A stretch of DNA of 64,000 nt, from the NCBI GenBank assembly GCA_002375465.1, contig DFLT01000002.1, positions 48,389-112,388 on the forward strand. The letters run 5' to 3'. Positions 9,211-60,876 of this stretch are shown here, piece after piece. Under the pieces are notes generated by a model. The model was not told the origin of the DNA. It saw nothing but the letters and a program-made list of their open reading frames with translations, and made no database searches. Every line of letters starts with the position of its first letter. The first letter of the stretch is position 1. The position numbers were made by a program, and so were the translations under genes. Source of the DNA: Alphaproteobacteria bacterium UBA3612. Its GTDB lineage: Bacteria; Pseudomonadota; Alphaproteobacteria; Sphingomonadales; Sphingomonadaceae.

Positions 9211-9351
9211 ATCTATCCAGCTTAGGGGCAGGTGGTGCCGGCGGGAAGTTCGGATATGCCGCCCGGGACATGAAGCGGCGATGAAATCGATCGCCTCACC
9301 CCATACGCGTTTCATTTGCCCCGCCACCCGTAGGGCGGCATAGTCCGCCGG

Positions 9352-43251: not shown

Positions 43252-43584
43252 ATGACCAGCGCGACCCCGGACGCGATTTCTGAACTGCTGGCGAGTGCGC
43301 GGGGGCACCGGCCGAAGAGCCTTGCCTGTGGAGAGGCGGAGGACGCGTTGAATGTCGCGCTGGCCCTGACGGTGGAACTTGCCGTGGCGAACGACAGGAT
43401 CGACAGGCTGGAACGCATGGTTGCCGATCTTCGCGGCGAACCCGTGTCGACGTTGCGCGACGTGGCTTATGAGGGTGATGTGGCTGCCGAACGGCGCGAC
43501 GCGATGGAAGCGCTGCTTATGCGTACAATGCGGATCTTCCTTGACCCTCGACGGCAGTCTGCTGATCATAACGGCAACAGATAG
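43252..43584 (+). CDS. Hypothetical 110-aa coiled-coil protein
   Basis: ATG at 43252 is preceded by AGGAAAG. A predicted helical segment is NDRIDRLERMVADLRGE. No family recognised. Confidence 0.45.
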   Translation: MTSATPDAISELLASARGHRPKSLACGEAEDALNVALALTVELAVANDRIDRLERMVADLRGEPVSTLRDVAYEGDVAAERRDAMEALLMRTMRIFLDPRRQSADHNGNR

Positions 43585-43633
43585 CGACCACGTGGTGTTC
43601 GCTGGTTGCGGCATTCAGCGATGGAGTCGTTCG

Positions 43634-44620
43634 GTGAAACAGGCGCTTGTGATTGCCGCGTCTTTGTTGCTGGGATTTCAGGCCGGCAATTCGTCCGTTC
43701 TGGCCCAGCCCATGGTGGTGCACCAGGCACCGGTCGTCTGCCTTGCCGCTCCAGGCGTGGAAAGCGACCGGCCGCTCGTATCTCGCATTGGCCGGCCAGA
43801 CCCGGCCGTGATGGACATTTTCTCTGGCGCGGGTGCGTCGGCCTTCTCGGTGCACGATCTTACCGAGGATGAGCTTATTCTCGTCGAAAAGGCCCTGGGA
43901 AAGCTGCCCCGCCTGCACCGCGACGTCCTGCGCCGCCACCTGCGGCGATTGAGCTTTCTCGACCTGCAGCCAGGCGCGGGAAGTGCGTTGACGAGCCGGG
44001 CCGGGCTTGATGACGCCAGCATGCAGTTCGATATCACGCTGCGAGCAAGCCTGCTCGACGAAAGCTTGGCCAAGTTCCTGAACGACAAGGAGAGCCGTCT
44101 GTTTGCCGATGATGATTCGGGCTTCAGCGTTGAATTCGACGCCGGGCAAAGCGATGCGCTGACCTATATCCTGCTGCATGAGGCTAATCATATCGTCGAT
44201 CAGGTCATCGCCTTGACCGCCGATACGGCAGGGCCGTTCCGGTCGAAAGTCTGGAAGGACCTTCGGGCCATTGCGCCCCCTCACGATGCCAGCCTTGCAG
44301 CGAAAAATCCGTTTCGGCGGGCACGGCCCATTCCGCTGCGCTATGCCCCGGCATATTACGAATCGCTGGCGAACAGTCCGTTCGTTTCGTTCTACGCCAC
44401 GGCGGCAGCGACCGAGGATGTTGCGGAACTGTTTGCGTGGCAACAATTGGCGTCGCGCTTTGACCAATCGCTGACGATCACGATCCGCGACAATCAGCGT
44501 CTGATCCTGCATCGCTACGAGCCTCTTGAAACGCCTTTCGCACTTTTGCGCTTTGGGGATGTGCAGGCCGTATTCGAGAAATATGAGCAGGCCTGCCGCA
44601 GGGTTGGAGGATCTGCCTAG
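43634..44620 (+). CDS. Secreted hypothetical protein with an HEXXH zinc-metallopeptidase-like motif
   Basis: GTG at 43634 gives VKQALVIAASLLLGFQAGNSSVLAQP, a signal peptide. The motif is ILLHEANHIVD. The upstream tracked part overlaps the previous gene. Confidence 0.55.
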   Translation: MKQALVIAASLLLGFQAGNSSVLAQPMVVHQAPVVCLAAPGVESDRPLVSRIGRPDPAVMDIFSGAGASAFSVHDLTEDELILVEKALGKLPRLHRDVLRRHLRRLSFLDLQPGAGSALTSRAGLDDASMQFDITLRASLLDESLAKFLNDKESRLFADDDSGFSVEFDAGQSDALTYILLHEANHIVDQVIALTADTAGPFRSKVWKDLRAIAPPHDASLAAKNPFRRARPIPLRYAPAYYESLANSPFVSFYATAAATEDVAELFAWQQLASRFDQSLTITIRDNQRLILHRYEPLETPFALLRFGDVQAVFEKYEQACRRVGGSA

Positions 44621-45030
44621 ACGGCTTGGGGATGTTGAGGAGCAGAAGTCTGACCAGACCGCAGCACAGTTGACGCAGGCCCAGCAACCTCGACACCGGC
44701 CGAATTTGACAGCGTAGGGATTGACGATGGGTGCCGCATGCGAATCGCTCGCACGTCGTCACGGATGGGCGAGGCCGCCGCACATCGTCCAGCCATATTC
44801 GGGTACGCCAAAAGCGCCGCTGCGTTCGCTTGGAACCGGAATGCTACCCAACATAGCGGCAGGCGGGTCGCTGCCAGCGCGCGTCGTGACTTCCAACATA
44901 ACGGCGGATCGCTCTAGCTATCGCGACAGGCGAGCAGTCGACGATACTTCCGGATGAACAAGAAGGCGGAGCGATCCCTCGGATTTCTCTGAGGCCCATA
45001 AGGCGTATAGGGAAGCGAGAGAAGAACAAA

Positions 45031-45052
45031 TGGTGCCAGAAGAGGACTCGAA
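45031..45052 (-). repeat. Isolated tRNA 3'-end fragment (T-loop, acceptor strand and ACCA); candidate att core at the island boundary
   Basis: The minus strand reads TTCGAGTCCTCTTCTGGCACCA. No D-arm or anticodon arm lies upstream of it; the flanking sequence is AT-rich. Confidence 0.6.
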
Positions 45053-45574
45053 TATACTTGATAACAATTTGTATTTATTTTCAAAGGGAAATTCGATTTA
45101 CAAATATGGCACAACCACTGGCACTAAATACTTTTTAGGTAGCGGTTCGCTTCCCGACTTCTATTCATACCATACGGTTTCATTACATTCCGATCCGTTG
45201 CCAGGCAAGCCATTCCATCCTGATTTACGTGGCAAGGCGGCCCTTGGAATAGAAAATCTTTCACCAACCGCCTCGCGCAGCACCTGCTAAGCAAAAATAG
45301 CGGAGCATCGTTTGTCATGCCTAGCACGCGCTGCCGGTTGCCAACGCCACCTTGGCGCCCCGAACGAGCGACTCGGGCTTCGCGATACTGGAGTTAGTTC
45401 AAGCTGGCAGCTTGTGGGCCGGTTACGGGATGATCCGGCTCAGGCCACCAGACACAGGAAAGCGAACATTCGGGCGAAGCGATGGCGGGCCCGCAGTCGC
45501 TCACTTTGCCGCCGTTCCCGGCCTCAGCTTAGCTCGACGGCATCTGGCCTCCATTCATATCGCCGGCGCAGCGG

Positions 45575-45844
45575 CTAGCCAACGCATTCAGGTAAGGACA
45601 ACAAGTTGTCATTCCATTTGCCGTCTGCGTAGGTGCGGAGATATTTACCGCTTGAGCCATTGACCACGCCGATGTTGCCGCGATTGCCTGCAACATAGGT
45701 GTAAAACGTATTAGTCTGGGCTTCGATGGAGTCGATGACTTGCTTGCGCGTCCAGTGCCAGCCGGAACCGCCCAAATGGGTGATGCCTTCATGGGTGCTG
45801 TCACGGGGCTGCTTGTTGATGCAGGTAACTTGAACGTCGGCCAT
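45575..45844 (-). CDS. DUF3892 domain protein (89 aa)
   Basis: ITHLGG..W.W....VI..IE...N.FYT......IGVV......YLRTYADGKWNDNLLSLPEC fits the DUF3892 pattern. Confidence 0.75.
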   Translation of the reverse strand: MADVQVTCINKQPRDSTHEGITHLGGSGWHWTRKQVIDSIEAQTNTFYTYVAGNRGNIGVVNGSSGKYLRTYADGKWNDNLLSLPECVG

Positions 45845-45867: not shown

Positions 45868-46056
45868 TTAGGAATTGGGGCCATCACGGCCATCGGGTTC
45901 TTTGGCGACGCCTTTGAACGGCGATGCGCCATTCTTGACGCTCATGAACTCGCCGGTGCGTTCGTTGCGCTTCTGAAAGTTGCCATCATTGCGCTGGAAC
46001 TGGGTGCGGGCAGTGACTGCGCCGCGACGAAAATTGCTTCCGGTATTCTTGGCCAT
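45868..46056 (-). CDS. Small basic hypothetical protein (62 aa)
   Basis: MAKNTGSNFRRGAVTARTQFQRNDGNFQKRNERTGEFMSVKNGASPFKGV.... It is tightly packed between two co-oriented small genes (16- and 23-nt gaps). Confidence 0.5.
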   Translation of the reverse strand: MAKNTGSNFRRGAVTARTQFQRNDGNFQKRNERTGEFMSVKNGASPFKGVAKEPDGRDGPNS

Positions 46057-46072: not shown

Positions 46073-46333
46073 TTAGTTGAACGTGTAACGCTTCCACGGG
46101 ATGCGGTTCATCGACACCCGCGAAAGAAAATTGGCGAGGTCGCGACGACCAAAATATGTCGGCGTTCCGCGCGAGTCCTGAGACATCAAGACAATCGGCA
46201 TCCCGGGAAAACACCGGCTAAAGTTCTGCGAGGCTTTCGCCGCTTCATGCCGGTTGTCCGTGATATGGCGCTTAACAACCACGACCGCGAAGGTCTGGCC
46301 CTGTTCTTTGATAACAGCACCTTCGAGATGCAT
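46073..46333 (-). CDS. Small hypothetical protein (86 aa), first gene of the three-gene minus-strand operon
   Basis: ATG at 46333 (MHLEGAVIKEQGQTFAVVVVKRH...). The longer tracked 182-aa form would run antisense through the XRE gene. Confidence 0.5.
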   Translation of the reverse strand: MHLEGAVIKEQGQTFAVVVVKRHITDNRHEAAKASQNFSRCFPGMPIVLMSQDSRGTPTYFGRRDLANFLSRVSMNRIPWKRYTFN

Positions 46334-46438
46334 GGCAGTTCCCTTTTTGCTTGGACTGGGGCGGGATGCCCTTGTCACGATTCGACATATGGCCCGATAC
46401 CGAAATGCCGTCAATACAAACATCAGGATGTGCTTGTC

Positions 46439-46468
46439 GCAAACATTTGTTTGCGTAATTGACATTAC
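46439..46468. promoter_or_regulatory. Two adjacent palindromes in the divergent promoter region; candidate XRE operators
   Basis: GCAAACATTTGTTTGC is a perfect 16-bp palindrome (46439-46454). It is followed by GTAATTGACATTAC (46455-46468), which contains TTGACA. Confidence 0.4.
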
Positions 46469-46496
46469 CCATGCATGAGTGCAGTTGCGCGCTTCG

Positions 46497-46853
46497 ATGG
46501 AAAAGCATTCAATATATGCCGAACTAGGCCGCGCTGTTGCTACTCGCCGTAAAATGGTGGGGCTTACACAGGCCGAAGTTGCCAAAGCCGTTGGCATTTC
46601 AAGAGCGTCAATCGCCAACATCGAATCTGGCCGCCAGAAGGTTCTGCTTCACCAAGTCTATGGGCTAGTCGAGGCGCTTGGACTCAAGGCCATTACCGAG
46701 CTTGTGCCTGCGACTCCTCCACGCGCTTTGGTAGCGGAAGCTGGGGAAAGGCTTTCAACATGGGGTGCAGCTGTGTCCGACGATCAGATGTCAGGGGTTG
46801 AACAACTGCTCAAAAGTGCGCTCGGACAACAGCGAAACGGTTCCGCTCGATGA
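46497..46853 (+). CDS. XRE-family HTH transcriptional regulator
   Basis: LTQAEVAKAVGISRASIANIESGRQ is an HTH_3 motif. A GTG at 46479 is an alternative start. Confidence 0.85.
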   Translation: MEKHSIYAELGRAVATRRKMVGLTQAEVAKAVGISRASIANIESGRQKVLLHQVYGLVEALGLKAITELVPATPPRALVAEAGERLSTWGAAVSDDQMSGVEQLLKSALGQQRNGSAR

Positions 46854-47371
46854 GCATCATTCAAGACAATGCACGAGAACTGGCCCGTGACGTCTTGGCC
46901 AAATACGGGACAGTCAACGCTCCTGTACCAGTCGAGAAGATCATCAAGCGGCTCGACATTCGCATCCAGTTCTCGCCGCTCGATCAAGAACTCTCTGGCA
47001 TGGCGCTAGTCAAAGATGGCGTTGCGGTAATCGGCATCAATGCGTTGCATCACCCCAACCGGCAACGCTTCACAATGGCACACGAACTTGGGCATCACAC
47101 TATGCATCGGACGCATATCGAAAATGCGGTGCATGTCGATAAAGGGTTCGCAATCCTGCGGCGTGATACCCTTGCCGCCCAGGGCACCGACAAGATGGAA
47201 ATTGAGGCCAATGCTTTTGCCTCGGAGCTTTTGATTCCTAGAGACTTACTGGAACCCGTAATCGGCACCGGCGACATAGACTTGGATGATGTGGATCGCT
47301 TGCAGTCCATTGCCAAAAAGTTCAAGGTCAGCCTGTCGGCGCTGCAATACAGATTGCTGGCGTTTACTTGA
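46850..47371 (+). CDS. ImmA/IrrE family zinc metallopeptidase
   Basis: FTMAHELGHHTMH (HEXXH). The ATGA overlap with the XRE gene is the classic XRE-ImmA pairing. Confidence 0.9.
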   Translation: MSIIQDNARELARDVLAKYGTVNAPVPVEKIIKRLDIRIQFSPLDQELSGMALVKDGVAVIGINALHHPNRQRFTMAHELGHHTMHRTHIENAVHVDKGFAILRRDTLAAQGTDKMEIEANAFASELLIPRDLLEPVIGTGDIDLDDVDRLQSIAKKFKVSLSALQYRLLAFT

Positions 47372-47446
47372 GGCTTGCGGGGGCGTGGCATGGGGTTCGT
47401 ATTCTATGCCACTAAAACGTCGGGCGCAGTAACGAACGGGGGCGGT

Positions 47447-48847
47447 ATGAGTTTTGTGTTCTACGATACCGAAACTACCGGTATCAATACGTCCTTTGAC
47501 CAAATCCTTCAGTTCGCAGCGATCAAGACCGATGCTGATCTAAATATCATTGAGCGGTTTGAAATCCGCTCTCGGCTCTTACCATTCGTGGTTCCCGCTC
47601 CCGGTGCGCTTCGGGTGACCAAAATGACGATTGAGCGGCTGCACGATCCTGCGACGCCCTCGCACTACGATATGATGCGGGCAATCCGAGCCAAGCTCTT
47701 GGAATGGTCACCAGCGATCTTCCTTGGGTATAACAGTTTGAGGTTTGATGAGGAGCTAATACGCCAAGCGCTGTATCAAACGCTGCATCGGCCATATCTG
47801 ACCAACACTGATGGCAACTGCCGGGGCGACGTTCTGGCCCTTGTTCAATCTGTTTCGGAGTTTGAGCCGGATTGCCTCTCGGTGCCGATCGGCAACAAAG
47901 GTACTGCCGTCTTTAAGCTTGATCAGCTTGCTCCGGCCAATGGTTTTGCTCACGAAAACGCGCATGACGCCTTGGCCGATGTCGAGGCCACTATTCACCT
48001 TTGCCGCCTGATTCAAGACGGAGCCGGCGAACAATGGAGTCGGTTTTTGCGGTTCACGCAAAAGGCAGCAGCAGTCGAGTTTTTGGATGAAGGCGACCCG
48101 TTCCTACTTACTGAGTTTTACTTCAACAGGCCAAAGCACATGCCGGTGTTACGCATCGGGCAAGAAGTTGGTCAACCCAACGTCTCGATCTGTTTTGATC
48201 TGGCGCGTGATCTAGACTCGTTCCGCAATTTGACTGATGCCCAGCTTCAACGTCTGATCGAGAGCTCTCCGAAACCGCTCCGAAAAGTCAAAGCCAATGC
48301 CGCGCCTACAATGAGCGCGCTTGATGATGTGCCAGTGCATTTGCTGAGCGGACTTTCCCATGATGATATTGCCGCTCGTGCGGCTGACCTTCAAAGTGAT
48401 GAGGCATTGATTGCGCGGCTCTTGGCTGCCTATGAAGCCACAAAAGCCGAGTATGAACCGTCCCCACATATCGAACAGCAAATCTATGGCGGGGAATTTC
48501 CGATGCCCGCAGATTACCAATTGATGGATCGATTTCACGAAACGCCGTGGGCGCAGCGTCACGCGCTGACGGGGCAGTTTCTTGACCCCAAGTTTGGGTT
48601 TATTGCCAAGCGCCTGATTTTTGCCAATGACCCCAACCACCTTCCCGCAGCTGAAAGGGCGGAAATGGCTAGCCATGTTTCATCGCGGCTGATTGTGCCA
48701 GACGATGCCGAAGTCAAATGGACGACGCTGATCAAAGCCAAAGCCGAATGCGCCAAAATGCTTCCTTCTGCTGACCCCGAAGATCTGCCGATCTTACAGG
48801 GCTATGCTCAGTATCTCGATGCTCGAATCGCTGCGGTAAATGGCTAG
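47447..48847 (+). CDS. sbcB: Exodeoxyribonuclease I (SbcB-like DEDDh 3'-5' exonuclease)
   Basis: FVFYDTETTG (Exo I), GYNSLRFDEE (Exo II) and NAHDALADVEAT (Exo III). The C-terminal region is of ExoI length, giving 466 aa from ATG 47447. Alternative upstream starts are at 47390 and 47375. Confidence 0.85.
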   Translation: MSFVFYDTETTGINTSFDQILQFAAIKTDADLNIIERFEIRSRLLPFVVPAPGALRVTKMTIERLHDPATPSHYDMMRAIRAKLLEWSPAIFLGYNSLRFDEELIRQALYQTLHRPYLTNTDGNCRGDVLALVQSVSEFEPDCLSVPIGNKGTAVFKLDQLAPANGFAHENAHDALADVEATIHLCRLIQDGAGEQWSRFLRFTQKAAAVEFLDEGDPFLLTEFYFNRPKHMPVLRIGQEVGQPNVSICFDLARDLDSFRNLTDAQLQRLIESSPKPLRKVKANAAPTMSALDDVPVHLLSGLSHDDIAARAADLQSDEALIARLLAAYEATKAEYEPSPHIEQQIYGGEFPMPADYQLMDRFHETPWAQRHALTGQFLDPKFGFIAKRLIFANDPNHLPAAERAEMASHVSSRLIVPDDAEVKWTTLIKAKAECAKMLPSADPEDLPILQGYAQYLDARIAAVNG

Positions 48848-49131: not shown

Positions 49132-52026
49132 TCAAATCGCAATCCCCCGCCCTCGCCCGAGATCAAGGCCATGATGAAACACGAGCTCGCCGCTAAGCGA
49201 GCGACCGCTGCCGGTGCTGATACCCAGCTCGACTTTGCGATTGGCGAGGAGCGATTCAAGCTGGGGGTCGCGCTGAAGGCTCTTAGCCATACTCGCCATC
49301 TCAGACCGAGTTGAGCGGTAGCTGCTCATCTCCCCGTGCGCGTAATTGTACTGGCTCTTTCGCTCAAGCTTTTGCCAGCGGGCAACAAACTGGTCGGCTC
49401 GCTCCTGCCCAGTTTCCCGAATTTTCTGCTCGGCCTTCATGGCAAGGATGGCACGACGCACCCGTCCACTTGCGGCTTCGTGCGCGAGCGGTTGATCTGC
49501 GAGGTAGGCACGCTCGATATCGCGTGAATAGTTTGCGCCAAACGCGTCCAACTTCTTGCGCGCTGCTGCCAGCTCTTGCATCTCAGGCGCCAAGCGGCCC
49601 TGCTCGACGCAATGATCGAGTGTCTTGCCATTTTCTTGCGCCAGGAACACATTTCTGACAGCCTGGGCGTGACGTCGGACAGCCGCCTGTGCCCTGACCT
49701 GGCGATCTGGCTTGGGCGATTGCGAGACCCGCTGCCCGTCAAACATACCGCGCACCTTATCGGGAACCTTGCGGACGATCTTGGCAACCCGTTCGCGGAC
49801 GCCGATGCCGCGCCGCTCGGCATATCGCTTCTCGATGCCTTCGTTCCGACCATAATCGGAAACCATGTCCTTGGCGCGTTCGCGGGACAGAGTGCGGGCG
49901 AGCTTATCGACGTCTGCGAAGTCATCCCTGCCGTAATGCAGCGAGAGGGACTCGCGATGTCGCGACAGCGCAACGTAGCTGCTATGCTGGTCCATTCCCG
50001 GCGTGGAGAGAACGTGGGTGCGATCCACGGTCACACCCTGCGATTTGTGAACGGTCGCGGCGTAACCGTGGTCGATATGGGCATAGTCCTTCGTGTCGAA
50101 CGCGACGTTTCGACCATCATCGAGCAACACGGCCATGCGTTGCGCGCTGACCGATTGCACCGTGCTGAGGCTCCCGTTCTTGACGCCAAGCTCGCGGTCG
50201 TTGCGCAGGAACATCAACCGGTCGCCGGTCGCGAACTGTCTCGTGCCGCGCTCGGCATTGATCGAAACGTCTTCGCCCAGCGCGCCGTCCTCGCGCAGCC
50301 TGCCGCGCGCCAGCTCATTGAGCGCGCGAACCTCATCGTTGGTGTGCGTGAGAATGATGCGTGACTGAGCGGGTTGTGCGGCGCGTTCGCGATTCCAGCC
50401 CTCGATCAGTTCCTCGCGCGCAGCGTCGCGCGTCTCGGCAACATGCACCATGCCGTTTGCCGAATATGCGTCCAATGCCTCGGCGGTGCGGCCCGTTGCC
50501 AGATGGCGCGTGGCATCTCGCTGCCAGTCCTCGCGCTGCCGCCGCACCTCGGTGATCTCGACTCCCCCATGGCGCTCGTGAATGGCACGAAACGCCGCGC
50601 CCGCTTCGATCGCCTGCAGCTGCTGCGGATCGCCGACCAGAACGATCTTGGCTGCGGCATCATTTGCAACAGACAGAACCCGCTGCATCTGGCGCGTACC
50701 GACCATGCCAGCCTCGTCGATGACCAGCACATCACGCGAGGTAAGCAACTCGCGTCCCTCGCTCCACTGGTGCTCAAGGCTGGCAATGGTGCGTGAGGCA
50801 ATACCCGAGCCGTTCTCGAGACTTTCGGCAGCGATACCCGAGAGCGCCGCGCCGCGAACATTGTAGCCCGCGCTCTCCCAGGCGTCGCGCGCCACACCCA
50901 GCATCGCACTCTTGCCGGTCCCGGCGTAGCCAACGACAACGCCCAGATCCTTGCCAGCCGTAGCATGCTCAAAGGCCACTCGCTGCTCGCCTGAAAGAAC
51001 CAGACCTCGCTGCTCGGCGGCGGCAAGCGCGCGGTCGCGGAAACGTTCGTGAACGCGGTGTCGATCGCGTTCGGCGATCGACGCGGTAGCGCGTTCCAAT
51101 CTCGCTTCCACCTCGATCATGTCGCGCGATGTGAAGCGTTCGTTGCCGCGACCATCCTTGCCCAGCGCAACCAGATCAGGCGAGGACTGCACCGCACTCA
51201 ACGCGCGATCAAACTGGTCCTTTCCATCCGAGTGACGGTGCACGAACCTCGCAAGGTCGCGGCGGGTAAAGGTCGCCTGGCCCTTTGTGATCGCGTCGAG
51301 GGCAATGTCGGGGTTGGCGATGATCCGCTCGCCATTCTCGCGGGCGATGGCGTGATTCTCGATCAGCCGGTCGGCCTCGGGGCCCATGCGCAGTGAGGGC
51401 GCACCGATCTTGGTCTGCGGCTCCAGCTCAATCCCCTGCGCCTCCAGACTGCGATGATCGATCCGCGCATCGATATCGAGCTCAGCCAGCCGCTCGTTGA
51501 CATGGTCGGCCCAGCGCTCGCGCCATGTCTCGATCAGCTCGGTGCGGTTCCAGTCGCGCACCTTCTTGCCGAACCCGTCTTCGCCCACCTCGCGCATGGA
51601 GAGCATGACATGGGCATGCGGCTTGGCGAGGCCGTCCGCGCCGATATCCCAGTGCACATTGAGGTCGGCGATCATCCCGCGTTCCACAAACTCGGATCGC
51701 ACAAAGTCCCGGGCGAGCTCTATGCCCTGCTGCTGGTCCAGTTCTCGCGGAATGGCGAACTCAATCTCGCGCGAGAGCTGCGCGTCCTTGCGCAGTTCGG
51801 TCGCCTCGACTTCGTTCCACAGGGTCGAGCGGTCGCCCAGCCGTTCGGGCGCACCCTCGGCCAGCAACACTTCGGAATGGACGACGCCGGCCTTGTTGGT
51901 GAAGTCATGCGAACGATCGAGGCGGTCATCGTGGAGCCGTCCTGCTGAACGGTAGGCGGCAGAGGCCACCGCGCTCGATCCGGCGCTGCGGGAAATGACT
52001 TTTGCCGAGAAATGGTAGATCGCCAT
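49132..52026 (-). CDS. traA: Ti-type conjugative relaxase TraA (MobA/MobL relaxase + RecD-like helicase)
   Basis: ATG at 52026 gives MAIYHFSAKVISRSAGSSAVASAAYRS, the MOBQ relaxase N-terminus. The HxDxxxPHxH-type motif is NVHWDIGADGLAKPHAHVM. The Walker A motif is GYAGTGKS. Confidence 0.93.
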   Translation of the reverse strand: MAIYHFSAKVISRSAGSSAVASAAYRSAGRLHDDRLDRSHDFTNKAGVVHSEVLLAEGAPERLGDRSTLWNEVEATELRKDAQLSREIEFAIPRELDQQQGIELARDFVRSEFVERGMIADLNVHWDIGADGLAKPHAHVMLSMREVGEDGFGKKVRDWNRTELIETWRERWADHVNERLAELDIDARIDHRSLEAQGIELEPQTKIGAPSLRMGPEADRLIENHAIARENGERIIANPDIALDAITKGQATFTRRDLARFVHRHSDGKDQFDRALSAVQSSPDLVALGKDGRGNERFTSRDMIEVEARLERATASIAERDRHRVHERFRDRALAAAEQRGLVLSGEQRVAFEHATAGKDLGVVVGYAGTGKSAMLGVARDAWESAGYNVRGAALSGIAAESLENGSGIASRTIASLEHQWSEGRELLTSRDVLVIDEAGMVGTRQMQRVLSVANDAAAKIVLVGDPQQLQAIEAGAAFRAIHERHGGVEITEVRRQREDWQRDATRHLATGRTAEALDAYSANGMVHVAETRDAAREELIEGWNRERAAQPAQSRIILTHTNDEVRALNELARGRLREDGALGEDVSINAERGTRQFATGDRLMFLRNDRELGVKNGSLSTVQSVSAQRMAVLLDDGRNVAFDTKDYAHIDHGYAATVHKSQGVTVDRTHVLSTPGMDQHSSYVALSRHRESLSLHYGRDDFADVDKLARTLSRERAKDMVSDYGRNEGIEKRYAERRGIGVRERVAKIVRKVPDKVRGMFDGQRVSQSPKPDRQVRAQAAVRRHAQAVRNVFLAQENGKTLDHCVEQGRLAPEMQELAAARKKLDAFGANYSRDIERAYLADQPLAHEAASGRVRRAILAMKAEQKIRETGQERADQFVARWQKLERKSQYNYAHGEMSSYRSTRSEMASMAKSLQRDPQLESLLANRKVELGISTGSGRSLSGELVFHHGLDLGRGRGIAI

Positions 52027-52052
52027 GGCGGCAATCCAGTTACGGCAAACAA

Positions 52053-52085
52053 GCGACGTCGGCACGACGTATAAGCGCGCCCTCA
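52053..52085 (+). other. oriT (MOBQ/RSF1010-type: inverted repeat followed by a nick-region consensus)
   Basis: The hairpin ACGTCG-GCA-CGACGT (52056-52070) is directly followed by ATAAGCGCGCCCTCA, which compares with RSF1010 TAAGTGCGCCCT. It lies in the traA/traC-like divergent intergenic region. Confidence 0.7.
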
Positions 52086-52197
52086 CATGATAAAATCCTG
52101 TTCGGGACCGGGCCGTGCCAGCCCGTCTCGGCAACATTGCAGCAATCGGAGGCGGGCCGCTTTAGGATGATCTCATCACAAAATGATGGAGAAAATC

Positions 52198-52744: not shown

Positions 52745-52792
52745 CGCGATTACGGGGTGCAGGTCGACAACGGCTTTGCTAGGCTCAAACAA

Positions 52793-53734
52793 ATGCGCAC
52801 CGACCTCGAACATCTTCCCCCGCAAAAGCAGCGCGAGATCGAGCGCGTGGTGCAGCTGATCTTCGAAGAGTTCAACGACGCCTTCGCGCTGGCCAAGCAC
52901 GATTGGAAAAAAGCCGGGCGCATTCTCAAAGTCATTCTCTACGGTAGCTATGCGCGCGGGACCTGGATCGATGAACCGCATACGGCCAAAGGGTACCAAT
53001 CGGACTATGATCTGCTCATAGTCGTCAACGCCAAGCGGCTGACTGATAGAGTCAAGTACTGGGCCAAGCTCGATGACCGGTTGATGCGCGAGTACGGTGT
53101 GACTGGTACGCTCAAGACGCCGGTCAATTTTATCGTCCACACGCTGCAGGAAGTGAACGACGGGCTCGCTCATGGGCGCTACTTCTTCATGGACGTGAAG
53201 GATGACGGCGTCGCGCTCTACCAGTTCGATGACACCGAGCTGCACACGCCCAAGCCCAAGACGGCGCCGCAGGCGCTGGCGATGGCACGGGAATACTTTG
53301 AAGACTGGATGCCCAGCGCGTCAGATTTCTTTGATGGGTATGTCGACGCCAAAGCGCGCGGGAAATTCAAGAAGGCCGTCTTTGATTTGCACCAATCTGC
53401 AGAGCGAATGTACCATACCGCGCTTCTCGTCTGCACATTCTACACGCCACACGTGCACAATCTTGGCTTCCTGCGCACCCAAGCCGAGCGCATCGATGCG
53501 CGCCTGACATACGTATGGCCGCGAGACACCAAGCGTGACCGCGCGCGCTTCGAGAAGCTCAAGGACGCCTATGTCAAAGCGCGCTACTCAAAGCACTACC
53601 GTATTACCAAGGACGAGCTCGAATGGCTCGGAACTCAAGTCGAGGAGCTCGGCCGCGTTGTGCACGAAGTCTGCTCCGAACGGATCGATAAGCTCAATGC
53701 TGACGCGAAGGCCAAGCCTGACAAGGTTCGGTGA
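52793..53734 (+). CDS. Fused nucleotidyltransferase (MNT-like) + HEPN domain protein
   Basis: NTase motif YGSYARG...SDYDLLIV in the N-terminal half. The helical C-terminal half reads as HEPN-like (DLHQSAERMYHTALL...KARYSKHY). Confidence 0.75.
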   Translation: MRTDLEHLPPQKQREIERVVQLIFEEFNDAFALAKHDWKKAGRILKVILYGSYARGTWIDEPHTAKGYQSDYDLLIVVNAKRLTDRVKYWAKLDDRLMREYGVTGTLKTPVNFIVHTLQEVNDGLAHGRYFFMDVKDDGVALYQFDDTELHTPKPKTAPQALAMAREYFEDWMPSASDFFDGYVDAKARGKFKKAVFDLHQSAERMYHTALLVCTFYTPHVHNLGFLRTQAERIDARLTYVWPRDTKRDRARFEKLKDAYVKARYSKHYRITKDELEWLGTQVEELGRVVHEVCSERIDKLNADAKAKPDKVR

Positions 53735-53923
53735 ATCGATCGGGTAAAGATCCCGCTGCCTGCTCAGGCTGCCTCCCACACGCGGTTGAGAATCAGAGCA
53801 GCTAGCGCCGCGTTGTTCTGCGGCAGAAACCGCCCGAATTCTTGGCGACGGTATCGAATGTGTCCTGGATCGCCTAGCGCGCTCGATCCATGATTAGCAA
53901 AAAGAGTGAGCCATCAAATCAGC

Positions 53924-54613
53924 TTAGAAGTTCTCCATTCTCACGTTCAACAGATCATTCGCGAAAGATCGCACGATCAGCGCTTCAAGCTTTCCGATCA
54001 GCGAGGACGGGACCGAATACGCGCTGACATAGCGCGCGATATCCCATAGAGGCACTTCTTCGCGAACAATTTTGCGCTGAATTTCGGCCGCTGTACGAAA
54101 CTGGGCTTTGGTACCCGGGTGCGTCACTCTCTTGATCGACTGAACCTCTTTGCGATCCCGGTTGAATGCATTGTTCAACTCTTTCCAGAGCGAAAGGCGA
54201 TGAGCCTTTCCAGCATAGATGGCCCGGCCTCTGCTGTCGTGAAAGATGTAGACACCATGGGTGGCCTCCAGCTCTTTTCGGAGTCCAGTCCAATAGGGAT
54301 GACTATCTCCGTCTTCGGTCTTAGTGGAGAAAATCTGCCAGCTTTTTCCCTGTGCCGTCTCACAAGGCTCAAGCTCGAGGAACTCAACCACCGGAACAAT
54401 CGAGCTTTCAGCCAAGTCGTCTGCGGCCTTTTTGCTCACCTTGTCGAGTAAGTTTGCCACCTGCTTGGCAGTGAGTTCTTTCCCACGATAGCCTTGCAAT
54501 GCGGGCTGGGTGACGCCCAACTCACGAGCAAGAACACTGTCGGTGACAGACTTCGTGCCTTTCCTGCTCTTGATGCGTCGCGCAACCTCTTCCAGTAATT
54601 CATCCCCGTTCAT
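53924..54613 (-). CDS. HTH domain + GIY-YIG-like (T5orf172-like) domain protein
   Basis: N-terminal SVLARELGVTQPALQGYRG (HTH). The core is HGVYIFHDSRGRAIYAGKAHRL (GIY...YxG-K pattern), with later E and N residues (KLEALIVRSFANDLLN). Its own SD, GAGGAA, lies 5 nt before the ATG. Confidence 0.55.
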   Translation of the reverse strand: MNGDELLEEVARRIKSRKGTKSVTDSVLARELGVTQPALQGYRGKELTAKQVANLLDKVSKKAADDLAESSIVPVVEFLELEPCETAQGKSWQIFSTKTEDGDSHPYWTGLRKELEATHGVYIFHDSRGRAIYAGKAHRLSLWKELNNAFNRDRKEVQSIKRVTHPGTKAQFRTAAEIQRKIVREEVPLWDIARYVSAYSVPSSLIGKLEALIVRSFANDLLNVRMENF

Positions 54614-54669
54614 GCTGATTCCTCGTTGTCTGTGTTCTGCACGCTGAATTGGCTATCAACTAACCGCTT

Positions 54670-55722
54670 CTACTTTTCAGCATTCAACCACTCTTCGAGT
54701 GCTGTGATGTCCGCCAAAAGCTCGGCGAATGTTGGCGGCTCCCGCATGAACATTACGGCCATTGCGTCGTAGTCCCGCTTGAGGTCATCGGCGATTGCAT
54801 CTGGGGGAGATAGCCGCAGTGAGCCGAGAAGCGCCGTTTCATAGGAGGCCGACTTGTCTGCAAACATCAGGCTTTTGTTCCGCACGACATTGGCCAGCAG
54901 CTCCGGCTGTCTCATCGCCTCTCGGTCGATGCCAGCACGCGTGAGCATCAAGGTGTCGTAGTAATGTCGCGACATACCATCGCGAAGCTTGCCGCTGTGG
55001 TACAGCATGTGAAGGATCGTCACCTTTTCCCAGAAAGTACGGGTCGCCGCCAAGGTCGGAATTTCGGCGATCGCGTCCGGCAACTCGTCAGGAAATTCGG
55101 CGGCCAGATAGGGTGTGATTGTCTTTAGTTCTGACGGCTCTGTGTCGCCGCGCGCGCCGAATTCGAGCTTGATGCGTGGCTTGATGTAGCCTCCGTCGGC
55201 ACCGCCACCATAGTCGTTGCCGTAGTTCAGGCCGTAGCCGGATGTTTGCGGGTAATTGAACAGCAGCGTCTGACGATCATTGTCGTCAGGGTCGAGTTCG
55301 AGGCTCCAACCATCGGGAGTCCCCAGCGCGGCTTCGATTTCCCTGGCGAGCACTGGCATGATGTCCTTGGCAACATAGCCTTGCGCCGCTTCCTTGAGCG
55401 CCTTGGTCCTACGTTGTCGCTCTTTGCCGCTTATCCCGTCCTCCATCGGCGAGTTCACCTCACTAACGCGCGGCGCGCCTTTGCTGATGGTAAGATCGAT
55501 GTCTTCCGAGAAGCGGTGAATGATGTCGTAAGCCTTGGAGAGCGAAGTCCCGCCTTTAAACATCAGATGACCGTTTAGCTCTTCGCAAGTCATGAGCCGT
55601 CGCAGCGTCCAACACACCCAGAAGTCTTTCTCGATGATCGTTGGCGTCAGGTCGCGCCTGCTGGCAGCTTCCTCAATGAAGGCGCGGCGGTCTGCGACGT
55701 CCCTGCGGGCGAACTCATCCAT
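54670..55722 (-). CDS. abiEii: AbiEii/AbiGii-family nucleotidyltransferase toxin (type IV TA / abortive infection)
   Basis: EKDFWVCWTLRRL...FKGGTSLSKAYDIIHRFSEDIDLT is the DUF1814/AbiEii signature. 350 aa. Confidence 0.9.
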   Translation of the reverse strand: MDEFARRDVADRRAFIEEAASRRDLTPTIIEKDFWVCWTLRRLMTCEELNGHLMFKGGTSLSKAYDIIHRFSEDIDLTISKGAPRVSEVNSPMEDGISGKERQRRTKALKEAAQGYVAKDIMPVLAREIEAALGTPDGWSLELDPDDNDRQTLLFNYPQTSGYGLNYGNDYGGGADGGYIKPRIKLEFGARGDTEPSELKTITPYLAAEFPDELPDAIAEIPTLAATRTFWEKVTILHMLYHSGKLRDGMSRHYYDTLMLTRAGIDREAMRQPELLANVVRNKSLMFADKSASYETALLGSLRLSPPDAIADDLKRDYDAMAVMFMREPPTFAELLADITALEEWLNAEK

Positions 55723-56323
55723 GACGGGCCTCCGCGATCCGCAGCACGACGTCGCCCATCCATCCGGTCATCTGTGGACGCGCATTAATCAGGGCCTTCA
55801 TATCGGCGTCGCCCAACCTGTCCGCAAACTGATGGATAATGTCGCTGTCCATACCGTCCTTCCCGATATGCGCCATGGCCTGAAGCACTGTGTTGGCTTG
55901 GTTGGATGCTTTATCGAGTAGGGGCGCGCGCGCATGCTTGAGCGCCACAGTACGCCCCGCCACCTGTTTCGTACGCGTTGCGCCATCGGTGGCGTAGGAA
56001 GACTTCGCCGGAACCTGTGTGGAGAGGCCAAGGCGGTTTGCGGCCGCTGCCCCTGCGGGTCCGATCCTGTCGCCGCTCTTGCTTGCAAGAGCGCGGGCAA
56101 GACTGTCTGGGTCAGGGCTGAGCGCTCCCAGCTTGTCATGCAGTCTGGGGTAATCGTAAATGCCGCGTCCGACACGACGAATCTGGCCAGATTTGGCGAG
56201 ACGCGATAGAGCCATGTCGACCGAACCGCGCGTGCCGAAGTCGATGAAGTCTTTGGGCGTAAAGGCCCAGCCACGGCCCTTGCCGCGCACACGCTTCATG
56301 ATTCTGTCGATCATAGCAGCCAT
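55715..56323 (-). CDS. abiEi: AbiEi-family antitoxin/transcriptional regulator
   Basis: F.PKDFIDFGTRGSVDMALSRLAKSGQIRRVGRGIYDYP is a winged-helix AbiEi N-terminus. It has an 8-nt overlap with abiEii. Confidence 0.85.
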   Translation of the reverse strand: MAAMIDRIMKRVRGKGRGWAFTPKDFIDFGTRGSVDMALSRLAKSGQIRRVGRGIYDYPRLHDKLGALSPDPDSLARALASKSGDRIGPAGAAAANRLGLSTQVPAKSSYATDGATRTKQVAGRTVALKHARAPLLDKASNQANTVLQAMAHIGKDGMDSDIIHQFADRLGDADMKALINARPQMTGWMGDVVLRIAEARHG

Positions 56324-56338
56324 TCCGAGCCTCCTTTC

Positions 56339-56368
56339 TGTTAGAAATTAGCATAGATATTTCTAACA
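56339..56368. promoter_or_regulatory. 10-bp perfect inverted repeat upstream of abiEi; candidate autoregulatory operator
   Basis: TGTTAGAAAT (56339-56348) and ATTTCTAACA (56359-56368) are separated by 10 bp and lie 16 nt upstream of the abiEi start codon. Confidence 0.5.
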
Positions 56369-56493
56369 AGCAATTAGCTCAAAACGGGAGAAATGCCGGT
56401 GACTAAATGCGCCTGTACAAGGATTACAACAGAGCCCGCCACGCCTCACAAAGCTGCGCACCAGGCGGGTATTCTATGCCCGAAGGCCGGGCG

Positions 56494-56718
56494 CTAAGCG
56501 CCCGGTTCCTTCTTCTCGTCCTCCAGCGGCGCGCGCAAGACGATCCGGCCATTGATCGGGACCACCTCCAGTTGAAGCGAGAGGCCCTTGCGGTCGCGGT
56601 GGAACCACGCGGCTCCGATGCGGGTCCAGAAGCCCTTGTCGCCCTTGTTGGCGACATGCCAGGCGAGAAAGTCCGGCGGATTGGTTTCCTGCGCGGAGGT
56701 GGTGTTGCTGCGTGCCAT
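56494..56718 (-). CDS. Small conserved ICE/plasmid protein (DUF736-like), 74 aa
   Basis: ATG at 56718. FWTRIGAAWFHRDRKGLSLQLEVVPINGRIVLR resembles DUF736-type proteins common on alphaproteobacterial ICEs. The upstream tracked extension is unlikely to be coding. Confidence 0.55.
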   Translation of the reverse strand: MARSNTTSAQETNPPDFLAWHVANKGDKGFWTRIGAAWFHRDRKGLSLQLEVVPINGRIVLRAPLEDEKKEPGA

Positions 56719-56967
56719 GATGGGTTCCTTTCGTGTCTGGTGGCTCGTTGCACCAAACGGGAAGGCCGCACGGTCAAGGGCAGGATGCATGTCCAACACG
56801 GGTGACCTCGGCGGAGCCCGGGGAACCGGCGCGGGCCGGGCATTGAAGGCTGACCGCGTGCGGCCAGTAAGGGTGCTCACAAACGAAGCCGCCTGATCGA
56901 AAGGCACGCAGACGCATGGCAAACCGACACTCTTGCGCCATGGATCACTCTCGCCCAAACCCTTGCC

Positions 56968-57783
56968 ATGGCAATAGCGGGCACTTCACGGAAGCGCTGG
57001 AGCGAAGAGGAAACGGTGCTTGCGCTGTATCTCTATTTCCAGCTGCCGTTCGGAAAGCTGCACTCGGGCAATCCGGAGATCCAGGAACTCGCCGCTGCGC
57101 TCGGGCGCACGAACAGTTCGGTCGCGATGAAGCTGTGCAACTTCGCCAGCCTCGATCCCAAGATCACCGACAGCGGGCGCAAAGGTCTGGACGGTGCCTC
57201 GAAGCTGGATCGCGCAACCTATGCGGAGTTTGGCCAAGACTGGACCGATCTCGTATCGCGAGCGGAAGGCCTATGGACCACGCAGTTAGGCCAGTTCGAA
57301 CCGCCACCCTCCCCGACGGGCCTAAATGAGAAATATAGCGAATTCCGGTTCGAGCCCTATCAAGGCGAGTCTACCACGCAGGCCCTCGTCAACCAGCGCA
57401 TCGGCCAGGACTTCTTTCGCCGCGCCGTGCTCGCCAATTACGAAGAGACCTGCTGCATCACCGGTATCGCCGATCCGCGCTTACTCACCGCGAGCCACAT
57501 CAAGCCATGGGGCAAAGACAGTGAGAACCGGCACAACCCCGCCAATGGCCTCCTACTGTCAGCGACACTCGACCGCGCCTTTGATCGCGGGCTTATCACG
57601 GTCGACCGCCAACGGAATATTCGCGTCTCGCGGCAACTGCGCGAAAGCCAGAGCCGCGAGACGCGCGACTATTTTGAGCAATTCGAGACGGCGACTTTGC
57701 GTTCAGCGATCCGGTTCGATCCCGAACCGGCGTTTCTCGACTGGCACAACGAACACTGCTTCGTGGATCAACGCGCCGCCTGA
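56968..57783 (+). CDS. HNH endonuclease (HNH_2/PF13391-type putative restriction endonuclease)
   Basis: CCITGIADPRLLTASHIKPW...NPANGLLLSATLDRAFDRGLITVD is the HNH_2 core. The N-terminal region is RWSEEETVLALYLYFQLPFGK. Confidence 0.85.
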   Translation: MAIAGTSRKRWSEEETVLALYLYFQLPFGKLHSGNPEIQELAAALGRTNSSVAMKLCNFASLDPKITDSGRKGLDGASKLDRATYAEFGQDWTDLVSRAEGLWTTQLGQFEPPPSPTGLNEKYSEFRFEPYQGESTTQALVNQRIGQDFFRRAVLANYEETCCITGIADPRLLTASHIKPWGKDSENRHNPANGLLLSATLDRAFDRGLITVDRQRNIRVSRQLRESQSRETRDYFEQFETATLRSAIRFDPEPAFLDWHNEHCFVDQRAA

Positions 57784-57824
57784 CGTGTCAGGCGGCACGC
57801 GGATTGCCAAGCTGCCGCCATTCT

Positions 57825-58208
57825 TCAATATTCGCTGGATAGCATGATGGTCAGCACCCGCCGTGTCACAGCGGGATTGGCCGGGTCCTCGCTGCCGAAC
57901 CGCAAATCGCAGTCGTAAGCATCGATCTTCCAGAACACGGTTTCGGCAGGCCGCGCCGGTCGCGTGGTCGTCCAACGGCCATCGCCATCTTGATAGATCG
58001 CCCCGAAATCGCGCTCACCATAAGCATCATTGTCCGGCGTGAAGGCGTCGAATGTCTCGACCAGTTCGCGCACCCGCGACTGATCCGCTTCGGGCAAGGT
58101 CCGGAAACCCTCGGTCATCACCGCAACGCAAGCCAGGCCCATCGCCTGTCGCGCCCGATCGTTAAGCCGAGCAATCCGTTCGCTGCGGGAAAGTGAAACG
58201 GTAGTCAT
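57825..58208 (-). CDS. DUF3768 domain protein
   Basis: ATG at 58208. RIARLNDRARQAMG...FTPDNDAYGERDFGAI......VFWKIDAYD fits the DUF3768 pattern. Confidence 0.8.
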   Translation of the reverse strand: MTTVSLSRSERIARLNDRARQAMGLACVAVMTEGFRTLPEADQSRVRELVETFDAFTPDNDAYGERDFGAIYQDGDGRWTTTRPARPAETVFWKIDAYDCDLRFGSEDPANPAVTRRVLTIMLSSEY

Positions 58209-58393
58209 TGCACCGCCCTCCCGCCGCTTTCGCACAAATGGACCAGTTTGCCGAAATCCTGCTTCGCGCCCAGTTTCTCCGCCAGACGCTGCACTGCCCC
58301 GAACGGCAACCCGTTCTCATTTGCCAGCATCCGCCACCAGTCCTCGCGGCACTCGGCCCCGCAGGCGTGGTAGTTCAACATCAAATCACCCAT
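58205..58393 (-). CDS. Small hypothetical protein (62 aa) translationally coupled to the DUF3768 gene
   Basis: ATG at 58393 is preceded by GGAGGAGAG. Its stop overlaps the DUF3768 start (ATGA). No family recognised. Confidence 0.45.
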   Translation of the reverse strand: MGDLMLNYHACGAECREDWWRMLANENGLPFGAVQRLAEKLGAKQDFGKLVHLCESGGRAVQ

Positions 58394-58982
58394 CTTCTGC
58401 TCTCCTCCGGCTGAAAGCCGCACTGCCTGCGGCATGCGGCTCTGCCTTCCGGCGAGGATGGGAGGGGGAGGGAAAACCGGAACCGATGCCTTGGCGCGGG
58501 CCAGCGGGCGAAGCCCGCCACACGGGGGTATCTGTTCCGGTTTGGGAACGAGAGGGCAAAGCCCCTGGCGTTCCCTCCAAAGAAGTGCTGCGCCGGCAGG
58601 CGCCACCCCAAGCCGCGTCAGCGGCTCACAGAAACGGTGCCCTCGCACGGCGCGACGCAGACGGGCGATGTGTCGGCAAGCCGAGGGCGCGGCAAGGCTG
58701 TTGCATCGCAGATGCAGCGCCGCTGACGCAAGCGAGCACGCAGCCGGCGCGCGCCCGGCAAGAAGAGAGGCGAGAGCCCCAGCGGGTCAGATACAAAACG
58801 CCGCGCCCGCAGGAGTGCAAAGCGCGGGACCGAGCGCGTCCTCAACTACGCCCGCTCAACATCCCTCCTGCTCCCGATCGTCACCCGGATGGGCCGGGAC
58901 TACAGGCCCGGTCCGCGCCAGCGGATAGAGCGGGTCGCCCGCAGGGCAGCACCCAATCTTTCGCCTGAACTCAATGTTGGCC

Positions 58983-60734: not shown

Positions 60735-60876
60735 CTGTATTTTCTCCTGCTACTCGGTCGTCCAAGCCAACTGGACTGTCCAGCAGCACCAGTAGTGATA
60801 AGCACAATTCGTTAAAGGCATCGACCAATTATGATGTGAAACCAGTAGCTCGCGATTGCTCTCAATCGCGCTAAAA

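Follow-up and report, generated by a model that had tools for sequence, protein, structure and literature searches.

The stretch of DNA analyzed here, hereafter the window, covers 64,000 nucleotides (nt) of contig DFLT01000002.1 of Alphaproteobacteria bacterium UBA3612. Its forward strand carries three consecutive genes coding for an XRE/CapH-like repressor (XRE), a short metallopeptidase of the ImmA/IrrE type (ImmA) and an SbcB-like exonuclease I (ExoI), and a divergent operon of three small genes lies to their left. Comparison of these sequences with related loci indicates that the three forward genes very probably constitute an autoregulated cassette of the CapH/CapP type, which would regulate an adjacent defence or stress operon and of which ExoI appears to be a part of the switch and not a cargo. 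Functional statements made below rest on sequence, comparison and analogy.

The repressor gene (46497..46853, + strand) encodes a protein of 118 amino acids (aa) matching HTH_3 (E 2e-11) and the PADLOC model capH (3e-9); its open reading frame (ORF) opens at the GTG at 46479, and the usable start is the ATG at 46497. The peptidase gene (46850..47371, + strand) encodes a Zn-metallopeptidase of 173 aa with an HELGH motif, which matches Peptidase_M78 (E 5e-28) and, over model positions 4-153 of 242, PADLOC capP (4e-36). Both genes overlap at 46850-46853 by an ATGA that holds the ATG of ImmA and the TGA of XRE, just as an earlier note on this DNA had described. That note had also placed the pair among XRE/ImmA switches such as CapH/CapP and ImmR/ImmA. 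This assignment, to a kind that also includes DdrO/IrrE, is sustained by the two PADLOC matches and by the closest structural matches of the peptidase. Indeed, CapP and IrrE/PprI are the top Foldseek matches of the ImmA model (pLDDT 85), with TM scores of 0.6-0.67 when referred to the query and 0.43-0.5 when referred to the target, the alignment covering the full query and about half of each target. The gene pair, a helix-turn-helix (HTH) repressor first and an M78/IrrE-type Zn-peptidase second, is the one found in CapH/CapP regulators.

The peptidase itself is shorter than CapP. Its alignment to CapP (7t5t) spans residues 84-182 of 291, where ImmA stops, and neither this alignment nor Foldseek revealed a GAF domain or a cysteine-switch loop in the window protein, so that the peptidase-HTH-GAF architecture and the loop that characterize CapP are both missing. 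Cysteine is absent altogether from the window ImmA, as it is from 35 of 41 relatives. Judging from its sequence, the window ImmA is CapP-like in kind yet short of one defining CapP feature, and its size is nearer to that of the ImmA proteins of integrative and conjugative elements (ICEs) and phages than to that of CapP. The peptidase family comprises about 1,200 clusters at E <= 1e-5, mostly from Alphaproteobacteria, and shortness (110-237 aa) is likewise the rule, with few exceptions, among its best 120 and best 150 homologues. Two homologues of 288-289 aa have an N-terminal extension of about 120 residues ahead of the peptidase region, the size expected for an XRE-ImmA fusion (the best 150 representatives span 110-290 aa).

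The third gene (47447..48847, + strand) encodes a 3'-5' exonuclease of 466 aa with all three ExoI domains (RNase_T 3e-13; Exonuc_X-T_C 1e-16). The earlier note had considered it full length with intact motifs, and FYDTETTG, NSLRFDEE and HDALADVEAT were all found. Moreover, an alignment of 11 sequences shows no variation at the DEDDh catalytic residues D7, E9, D101, H173 and D178, and the protein aligns to the structure of Escherichia coli ExoI (1fxx) over residues 10-430. It thus combines the DEDDh domain, with motifs Exo I, II and III, and the C-terminal domains that define ExoI (SbcB). Its score of 198 bits against the NCBIfam ExoI equivalog NF008746 lies below the cut-off of 260 bits and thereby designates a divergent subfamily. 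A far stronger match was obtained with the PADLOC model RTasSbcB (366 bits, 7e-110), an accessory of defence-associated reverse transcriptases (DRTs). No reverse transcriptase was found among the window neighbours of ExoI, nor does any appear in the 25 commonest families to which 129 neighbour proteins in related loci belong; the RTasSbcB model corresponds to the clade of this ExoI as noticed near defence reverse transcriptases. A comparison with the SSB-tail pocket of E. coli ExoI was dropped, the alignment being too distant for such use.

The spacing of 3-75 nt between ImmA and ExoI given in the earlier note matches three alternative starts of ExoI, namely TTG at 47375 (3 nt), ATG at 47390 (18 nt) and ATG at 47447 (75 nt). 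A local alignment shows that, in the intervening segment (47372..47446, + strand), the ribosome-binding site of ExoI and its first 12 codons are present a second time, as a decayed copy in tandem. The duplication spans 57 bp, and its upstream copy, which includes the ATG at 47390 (MGFVFYATKTSG), has lost the catalytic D and E. A sub-clade of homologues of about 484 aa has this same extension; since the duplicate is retained across this whole sub-clade, it may be a translated N-terminal extension or an aid to translational coupling.

The region upstream of XRE displays one layout common to all 45 aligned loci, and the promoter was deduced from this cross-locus conservation. In the window, operator O1 (46438..46455) is the perfect 8+2+8 palindrome CGCAAACATTTGTTTGCG, whose core CAAACAT-ATGTTTG is conserved in the 45 loci and stands directly before the -35 box, AGCACAT being a variant half-site. 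The -35 hexamer of the XRE-ImmA-ExoI promoter, TTGACA (46459..46464, + strand), belongs to a conserved TTGAC[A/G] box, which 43 of the 45 loci have about 36 nt (35-39) ahead of the start of XRE; the distance is 65 nt in the near-identical L038 and L039 (L numbers are labels of related loci). Such a distance implies that the XRE leader is very short or absent. Toward the divergent genes, 46409..46437 presumably contains the divergent promoter and operator, with the inverted -35-like box CGTCAA (46409-46414; minus-strand TTGACG) followed by the imperfect operator O2 (CAAACATCAGGATGTGCT; about 46417-46434). An inverted TGTCAA(T) box with a CAAACAT-type half-site occurs at this position in most of the 45 loci, and in the closest relatives both -35 boxes lie inside one perfect palindrome of 36-38 bp.

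Two promoter palindromes had been pointed out in the earlier note. The second, GTAAT-TGAC-ATTAC (46455-46468), has arms of merely 5 nt and is not palindromic in relatives, but it includes the conserved TTGACA. As for the first, CGCAAACATTTGTTTGCG, its occurrence alone is unexceptional, for the window contains 6 such palindromes and shuffled sequences contain 4 on average; its significance comes from the conservation of the operator and -35 layout at a fixed distance from XRE in 45 loci. The 14-mer operator has a single match with at most one mismatch in the whole window, O1 itself. The promoter layout fits a local repressor acting over both divergent promoters, its own included. A palindromic operator in a shared promoter, as expected for CapH/CapP regulators, is present in the sequence of 45 loci, where repressor binding is predicted. 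A generic scan for sigma-70 promoters and terminators yielded no promoter call, no -10 match and nothing useful.

The HTH-ImmA-exonuclease order recurs on four alphaproteobacterial plasmids, from Rhizobium, Pseudosulfitobacter, Mesorhizobium and Methylocystis, with ExoI at about 40% identity and each cassette divergent from a different operon; no near-identical DNA was found in plasmids. A scan of one genome per species gave 80 loci, to which hidden Markov models built from the window and plasmid proteins were then applied. Genes in related loci were called by a simple longest-ORF rule and the tree was computed by neighbour joining; samples of 80 loci such as this one are biased to closer relatives. 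In the tree, ExoI proteins of trios group in a single clade of 44 members, 40 of which have XRE-ImmA directly upstream on the same strand; the other four are solo genes. The ExoI proteins of Pelagibacter, SAR116 and Rhodobacterales branch outside this clade, and the Pelagibacter and SAR116 genes examined adjoin trxA and folC and hence look like housekeeping copies.

A reciprocal scan starting from the peptidase gave a concordant picture. ExoI lies downstream in 11 of the 13 informative metagenome loci with an ImmA identity of at least 49%, and in none of the 54 loci at 32-48% identity, where the XRE partner is kept; the trio was also present in 5 of 5 further ImmA homologues sampled independently with their gene context. 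XRE precedes ImmA in every triad locus, usually overlapping it by 4 nt, and ExoI is constantly the third gene of the operon, after the protease. Gaps between ImmA and ExoI range from a 4-nt overlap to 34 nt, reaching 1720 nt in L008, where ExoI is split by an insertion sequence (IS). Co-conservation of ExoI with XRE-ImmA, which the earlier note had itself set as a test that could refute it, is hence strongly positive. Pairwise distance matrices of the three proteins are correlated (r = 0.91-0.93, Mantel p = 0.001), which speaks for joint inheritance and not for physical interaction. The trio subfamily of ImmA is absent from 2.9 million viral contigs, in which the 80 best peptidase loci reach at most 38% identity and never include ExoI.

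Some pairs of loci present mosaic identities. Between the window and L005, ExoI is 73% identical and ImmA only 58%, while between the window and L044 ImmA is 87% identical and ExoI about 48-65%, a pattern suggestive of recombination between the two genes. The idea that the position behind ImmA is generally a slot for a third gene was considered and rejected, as the next gene in ExoI-less pairs is absent or varied (DprA-like, UvrD and PIN once each, Beta protein twice). Genes handling single-stranded DNA (ssDNA) occasionally follow ImmA in distant loci, L121, L128 or L164 among them; these DprA-like and UvrD-type helicase neighbours are single cases and may be due to chance.

The operon divergent from the cassette begins with s86 (46073..46333, - strand; 86 aa), continues with s62 (45868..46056, - strand; 62 aa) and ends in the window with the gene of a DUF3892 protein (45575..45844, - strand; 89 aa; Pfam E 4e-16). 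The product of s86 belongs to a family of 294 members of 85-87 aa with no Pfam match; its AlphaFold2 model (pLDDT 95) is an alpha/beta fold for which no significant match was found in the PDB. The product of s62 matches the PADLOC candidate PDC-S38 (E 2e-18) and is 82-97% identical in L005, L007, L008 and L044, and a DUF3892 protein occupies the same position in L007, L008, L044, L085 and L090. The operons of sphingomonad relatives open with s86 and s62 and go on with variable partners, such as SLATT and a cyclase in L005 or DUF3892 and a TIR protein in L008 and L044, whereas DUF3892 is the last gene in the window, L085 and L090. The resulting six-gene module is the same in three unrelated elements: an island with a relaxase in the window, an element with type IV secretion genes in L085, and an island with a serine recombinase located beside a split gene of the Mg-chelatase family (ChlI/Mg_chelatase; L090). 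Relatives of s86 are also encountered directly behind other regulators of the damage type, namely a BrxR/WYL regulator ahead of Wadjet in L093, and an HTH protein with a 206-aa M78 peptidase in L091, where DUF2188 is present too. It seems that operons of this sort repeatedly begin with an s86 relative.

Among related loci, the divergent operon sharing the promoter of the cassette is commonly a defence operon. The examples include type II cyclic oligonucleotide-based antiphage signalling systems (CBASS; patatin, cyclase, E1-E2), type III CBASS (TRIP13, HORMA, cyclase, SAVED), CBASS with SLATT or a Tle1-like protein, ThsB-like TIR proteins, SIR2-HerA, Bub (multiubiquitin and ThiF) and Bil. ThiF (22 proteins), TIR (9), SMODS (8), patatin (8), Prok-E2_B (8) and Multi_ubiq (6) are the commonest families among the 129 neighbour proteins. 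The switch of the window most likely also controls its three small divergent genes.

Taken together, these observations lead us to propose that XRE-ImmA-ExoI acts as a damage-responsive switch in which ExoI sets the threshold and provides negative feedback, an overall reading that, by analogy with known systems, we judge to have about an even chance of being right. First, a dimer of XRE bound to the operators would repress both promoters. Second, DNA damage or infection would generate ssDNA, and ImmA would cleave XRE. Both operons would then be derepressed, so that s86, s62 and DUF3892 would be expressed in one direction and additional XRE, ImmA and ExoI in the other. Finally, ExoI, as an active 3'-5' ssDNA exonuclease, would remove 3'-ended ssDNA and thus hold the switch off in unstressed cells and shut it off again after induction.

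For ExoI considered by itself, signal damping and negative feedback is a role to which we give a chance slightly under or at best equal to even. It is favoured because ExoI keeps all catalytic residues, because ExoI is encoded in the XRE/ImmA operon, whose promoter should itself be derepressed on induction, and because two precedents exist. Host SbcB restrains the ssDNA-producing system DRT10 (10.64898/2026.04.29.721553), and the Exo/Cap18 nuclease of CBASS destroys a signalling intermediate and thereby creates a threshold (10.1101/2025.03.04.641389).

Several observations weigh against this proposal. ImmA lacks the GAF domain and the cysteine-switch loop, the very parts by which CapP senses ssDNA, and ssDNA as the signal is accordingly an analogy and not a finding. 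The divergent operon of the window contains no recognizable effector, and no RNA-seq run containing this sequence was found. Co-divergence of the three proteins is expected for any closely linked genes. Moreover, short XRE-ImmA pairs without ExoI are many, as the 54 more distant metagenome loci illustrate, and ExoI is broken or truncated in otherwise intact cassettes: by the IS insertion in L008 (about 8280-10000), by a frameshift in L044 (10001-11382) and by shortening to 300 aa, with the exonuclease domain only, in L086-L089 (8562-9464), where it stands beside a Bil operon in a form recurring in many soil contigs. ExoI-less pairs and broken copies together imply that ExoI is not indispensable.

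ExoI could instead be a defence effector: once derepressed, it would attack ssDNA entering or replicating in the cell, conjugative T-strands for example, or the replication and recombination intermediates of phages. Cassettes of the window, L085 and L090 have no other recognizable effector, solo members of the family occur in restriction-modification (R-M) and defence islands, and PADLOC models the clade as a defence accessory through RTasSbcB. Most divergent operons, on the other hand, are already complete with effectors of their own (patatin, TIR, SLATT, SAVED, SIR2), ExoI stays in the regulator operon whatever the type of system, and processive degradation of ssDNA is an activity of the housekeeping type, which hardly discriminates between targets. 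We consider this role improbable, and signal removal with feedback, as far as analogy can tell, fits better. Far less probable still is a function like that of CBASS Exo/Cap18, in which ExoI would degrade a nucleotide second-messenger intermediate instead of DNA. ExoI is a DEDDh nuclease like the enzyme that sets the CBASS threshold, and it often lies beside CBASS or TIR systems, in which nucleotides serve as signals; yet Bub, Bil and small-gene operons, which possess no recognizable nucleotide-cyclase gene, are equally linked to the cassette, whose ExoI is a three-domain protein of 466 aa and no small RNase T-like dimer, encoded with the regulators and not with the effectors.

A role in damping the signal has also to be weighed against the converse possibility that ExoI is the missing ssDNA sensor. 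By binding 3' ends, or by stalling on protected ends, ExoI would license the GAF-less ImmA and substitute in trans for the GAF domain of CapP or IrrE. CapP consists of peptidase (1-141), HTH (142-182) and GAF (182-288) domains, and ssDNA accommodated in the groove between peptidase and GAF, where IrrE binds it as well, releases the cysteine-switch loop (PMC13228613). ImmA ends where the GAF domain would begin, its best 120 and best 150 homologues share this shortness, and the association of ExoI with a single ImmA subfamily breaks off sharply at 49% identity, in genes placed nearly end to end and even overlapping in L001 and L037. A pure sensor would nevertheless not need the invariant catalytic residues, a Rosetta-stone search disclosed no ImmA-ExoI fusion among the best 150 representative peptidase proteins, the majority of short ImmA peptidases manage without ExoI, and cassettes with a broken ExoI persist. 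This explanation seems to us unlikely, if somewhat less so than an effector role.

The genomic setting of the window bears on a further alternative, called parsimonious in the earlier note, according to which XRE-ImmA would be the induction switch of an integrative element, like ImmR/ImmA of ICEBs1, and the nuclease an unrelated cargo. The pair does resemble such switches by its short GAF-less peptidase, as found in the ImmA proteins of phages and of ICEs such as ICEBs1. It also resides in DNA resembling an island, where the G+C content, about 63% outside, is down to 53% (45-49 kb), with the gene of a MobA/MobL relaxase-helicase (49132-52137) downstream of ExoI, convergent with it and 285 nt past its end. 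The mobile-element location assumed in the earlier note is plausible in view of this G+C drop and relaxase, but no integrase, tRNA or type IV secretion gene was seen in the part of the window examined. ExoI is co-conserved with the pair on plasmids, islands and chromosomes of many families, and what lies divergent from it is a defence operon or a set of small genes, never int/xis or transfer genes. The recurrence of the six-gene module in three unrelated elements, the lack of a second operator in the window and the absence of the subfamily from viral contigs point in the same direction. The same cassette being found in unrelated contexts beside defence operons contradicts the cargo hypothesis, which we hold to be highly improbable.

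To the right of the relaxase gene, a defence island extends from 52757 to 63815. It encodes a SMODS/HEPN-type nucleotidyltransferase (52757-53734), AbiEii (54670-55722) and AbiEi (55715-56323), an HNH protein (56968-57783), GmrSD (58983-60734) and the HsdS (60877-62673) and HsdM (62670-63815) subunits of a type I R-M system. To the left, purH (41.3-42.9 kb) belongs to the ordinary chromosome. It is followed by an ORF of 413 aa (43379-44620) with an HEANH-like motif and no Pfam match, and by a stretch of about 900 bp (44650-45570), ahead of the G+C drop, in which no clear gene was recognized. The left end of the island is probably located in the region 43379-45570. Neither a tRNA nor a repeat was identified at this left boundary, a tRNA scan for an integration site returned none, and an Rfam scan of 43-53 kb returned nothing.

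Repressor-protease pairs of the ImmA/IrrE/CapP kind time the switch-on of prophages, ICEs, DNA-repair regulons and many anti-phage systems. In the long forms, the trigger is ssDNA bound to the GAF domain, which short ImmA-type forms such as this one lack. CapH/CapP, ImmR/ImmA and ExoI are each known, and no description of the trio was found in targeted searches of the literature on CapP/CapH with an exonuclease, ImmA with SbcB, RTasSbcB, or COG2856 with an exonuclease. In this combination, a housekeeping-type ssDNA exonuclease may have been recruited into a repressor-protease immune switch as an integral subunit that processes the signal. Taken to its furthest, an idea that we regard as rather unlikely, ExoI would be the sensor or co-activator, and it would then reveal how short proteases of the ImmA family read DNA damage or infection. 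The trio offers a direct route to the study of threshold setting, reset after induction and ssDNA sensing in such switches, and annotations of CBASS, Thoeris-like, Bub and Bil operons would gain ExoI as a third component in their surroundings.

The trio shares features with four groups of known systems. CapP and CapH are reported to respond to ssDNA and to regulate the CBASS, Bub or other operon next to them (PMC13228613; PMC11601596; 10.1101/2022.04.27.489752). Like them (Lau et al., 2022; Calloji et al., 2026), the cassette has an HTH repressor gene and, behind it, the gene of a Zn-peptidase of the M78/IrrE type; in related loci it shares its promoter region with a divergent defence operon, CBASS I-III and Bub being among the neighbours, and the top structural match of its peptidase is Thauera CapP. 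It differs from them by a peptidase of 173 aa without GAF domain or cysteine-switch loop, by a partner operon of three small genes in the window and by its conserved third gene, ExoI; the papers examined on CapH/CapP, Bub and CapK/CapS mention sigma factors and CapH-CapP fusions and no exonuclease. ImmR/ImmA of ICEBs1 and phage-type pairs have in common with the cassette a GAF-less peptidase of about 170 aa, the gene of which overlaps XRE; like them, the cassette is probably cotranscribed and autoregulated, from a promoter whose leader is short or missing. Unlike these pairs, the trio has no adjacent integrase, excisionase or transfer genes, carries ExoI and belongs to a subfamily not found in viral contigs.

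E. coli SbcB resembles the window ExoI in its DEDDh exonuclease and ExoI C-terminal domains and in all catalytic motifs. The two proteins are only about 25% identical, the window ExoI belongs to a clade separate from that of housekeeping-type ExoI, and its gene resides in a regulator operon on presumably mobile DNA. Finally, host SbcB acting on DRT10-UG17 and the Exo (Cap18) nuclease of CBASS are, like this ExoI, DEDDh 3'-5' nucleases, and both keep an immune signal below threshold, as we propose for the trio. The DRT10/UG17 case differs in that no reverse transcriptase was found beside the window ExoI. Cap18 is a small RNase T-like DEDDh dimer encoded in the effector operon of CBASS, which the window protein is not: here, a full ExoI is carried by the operon of the regulators.

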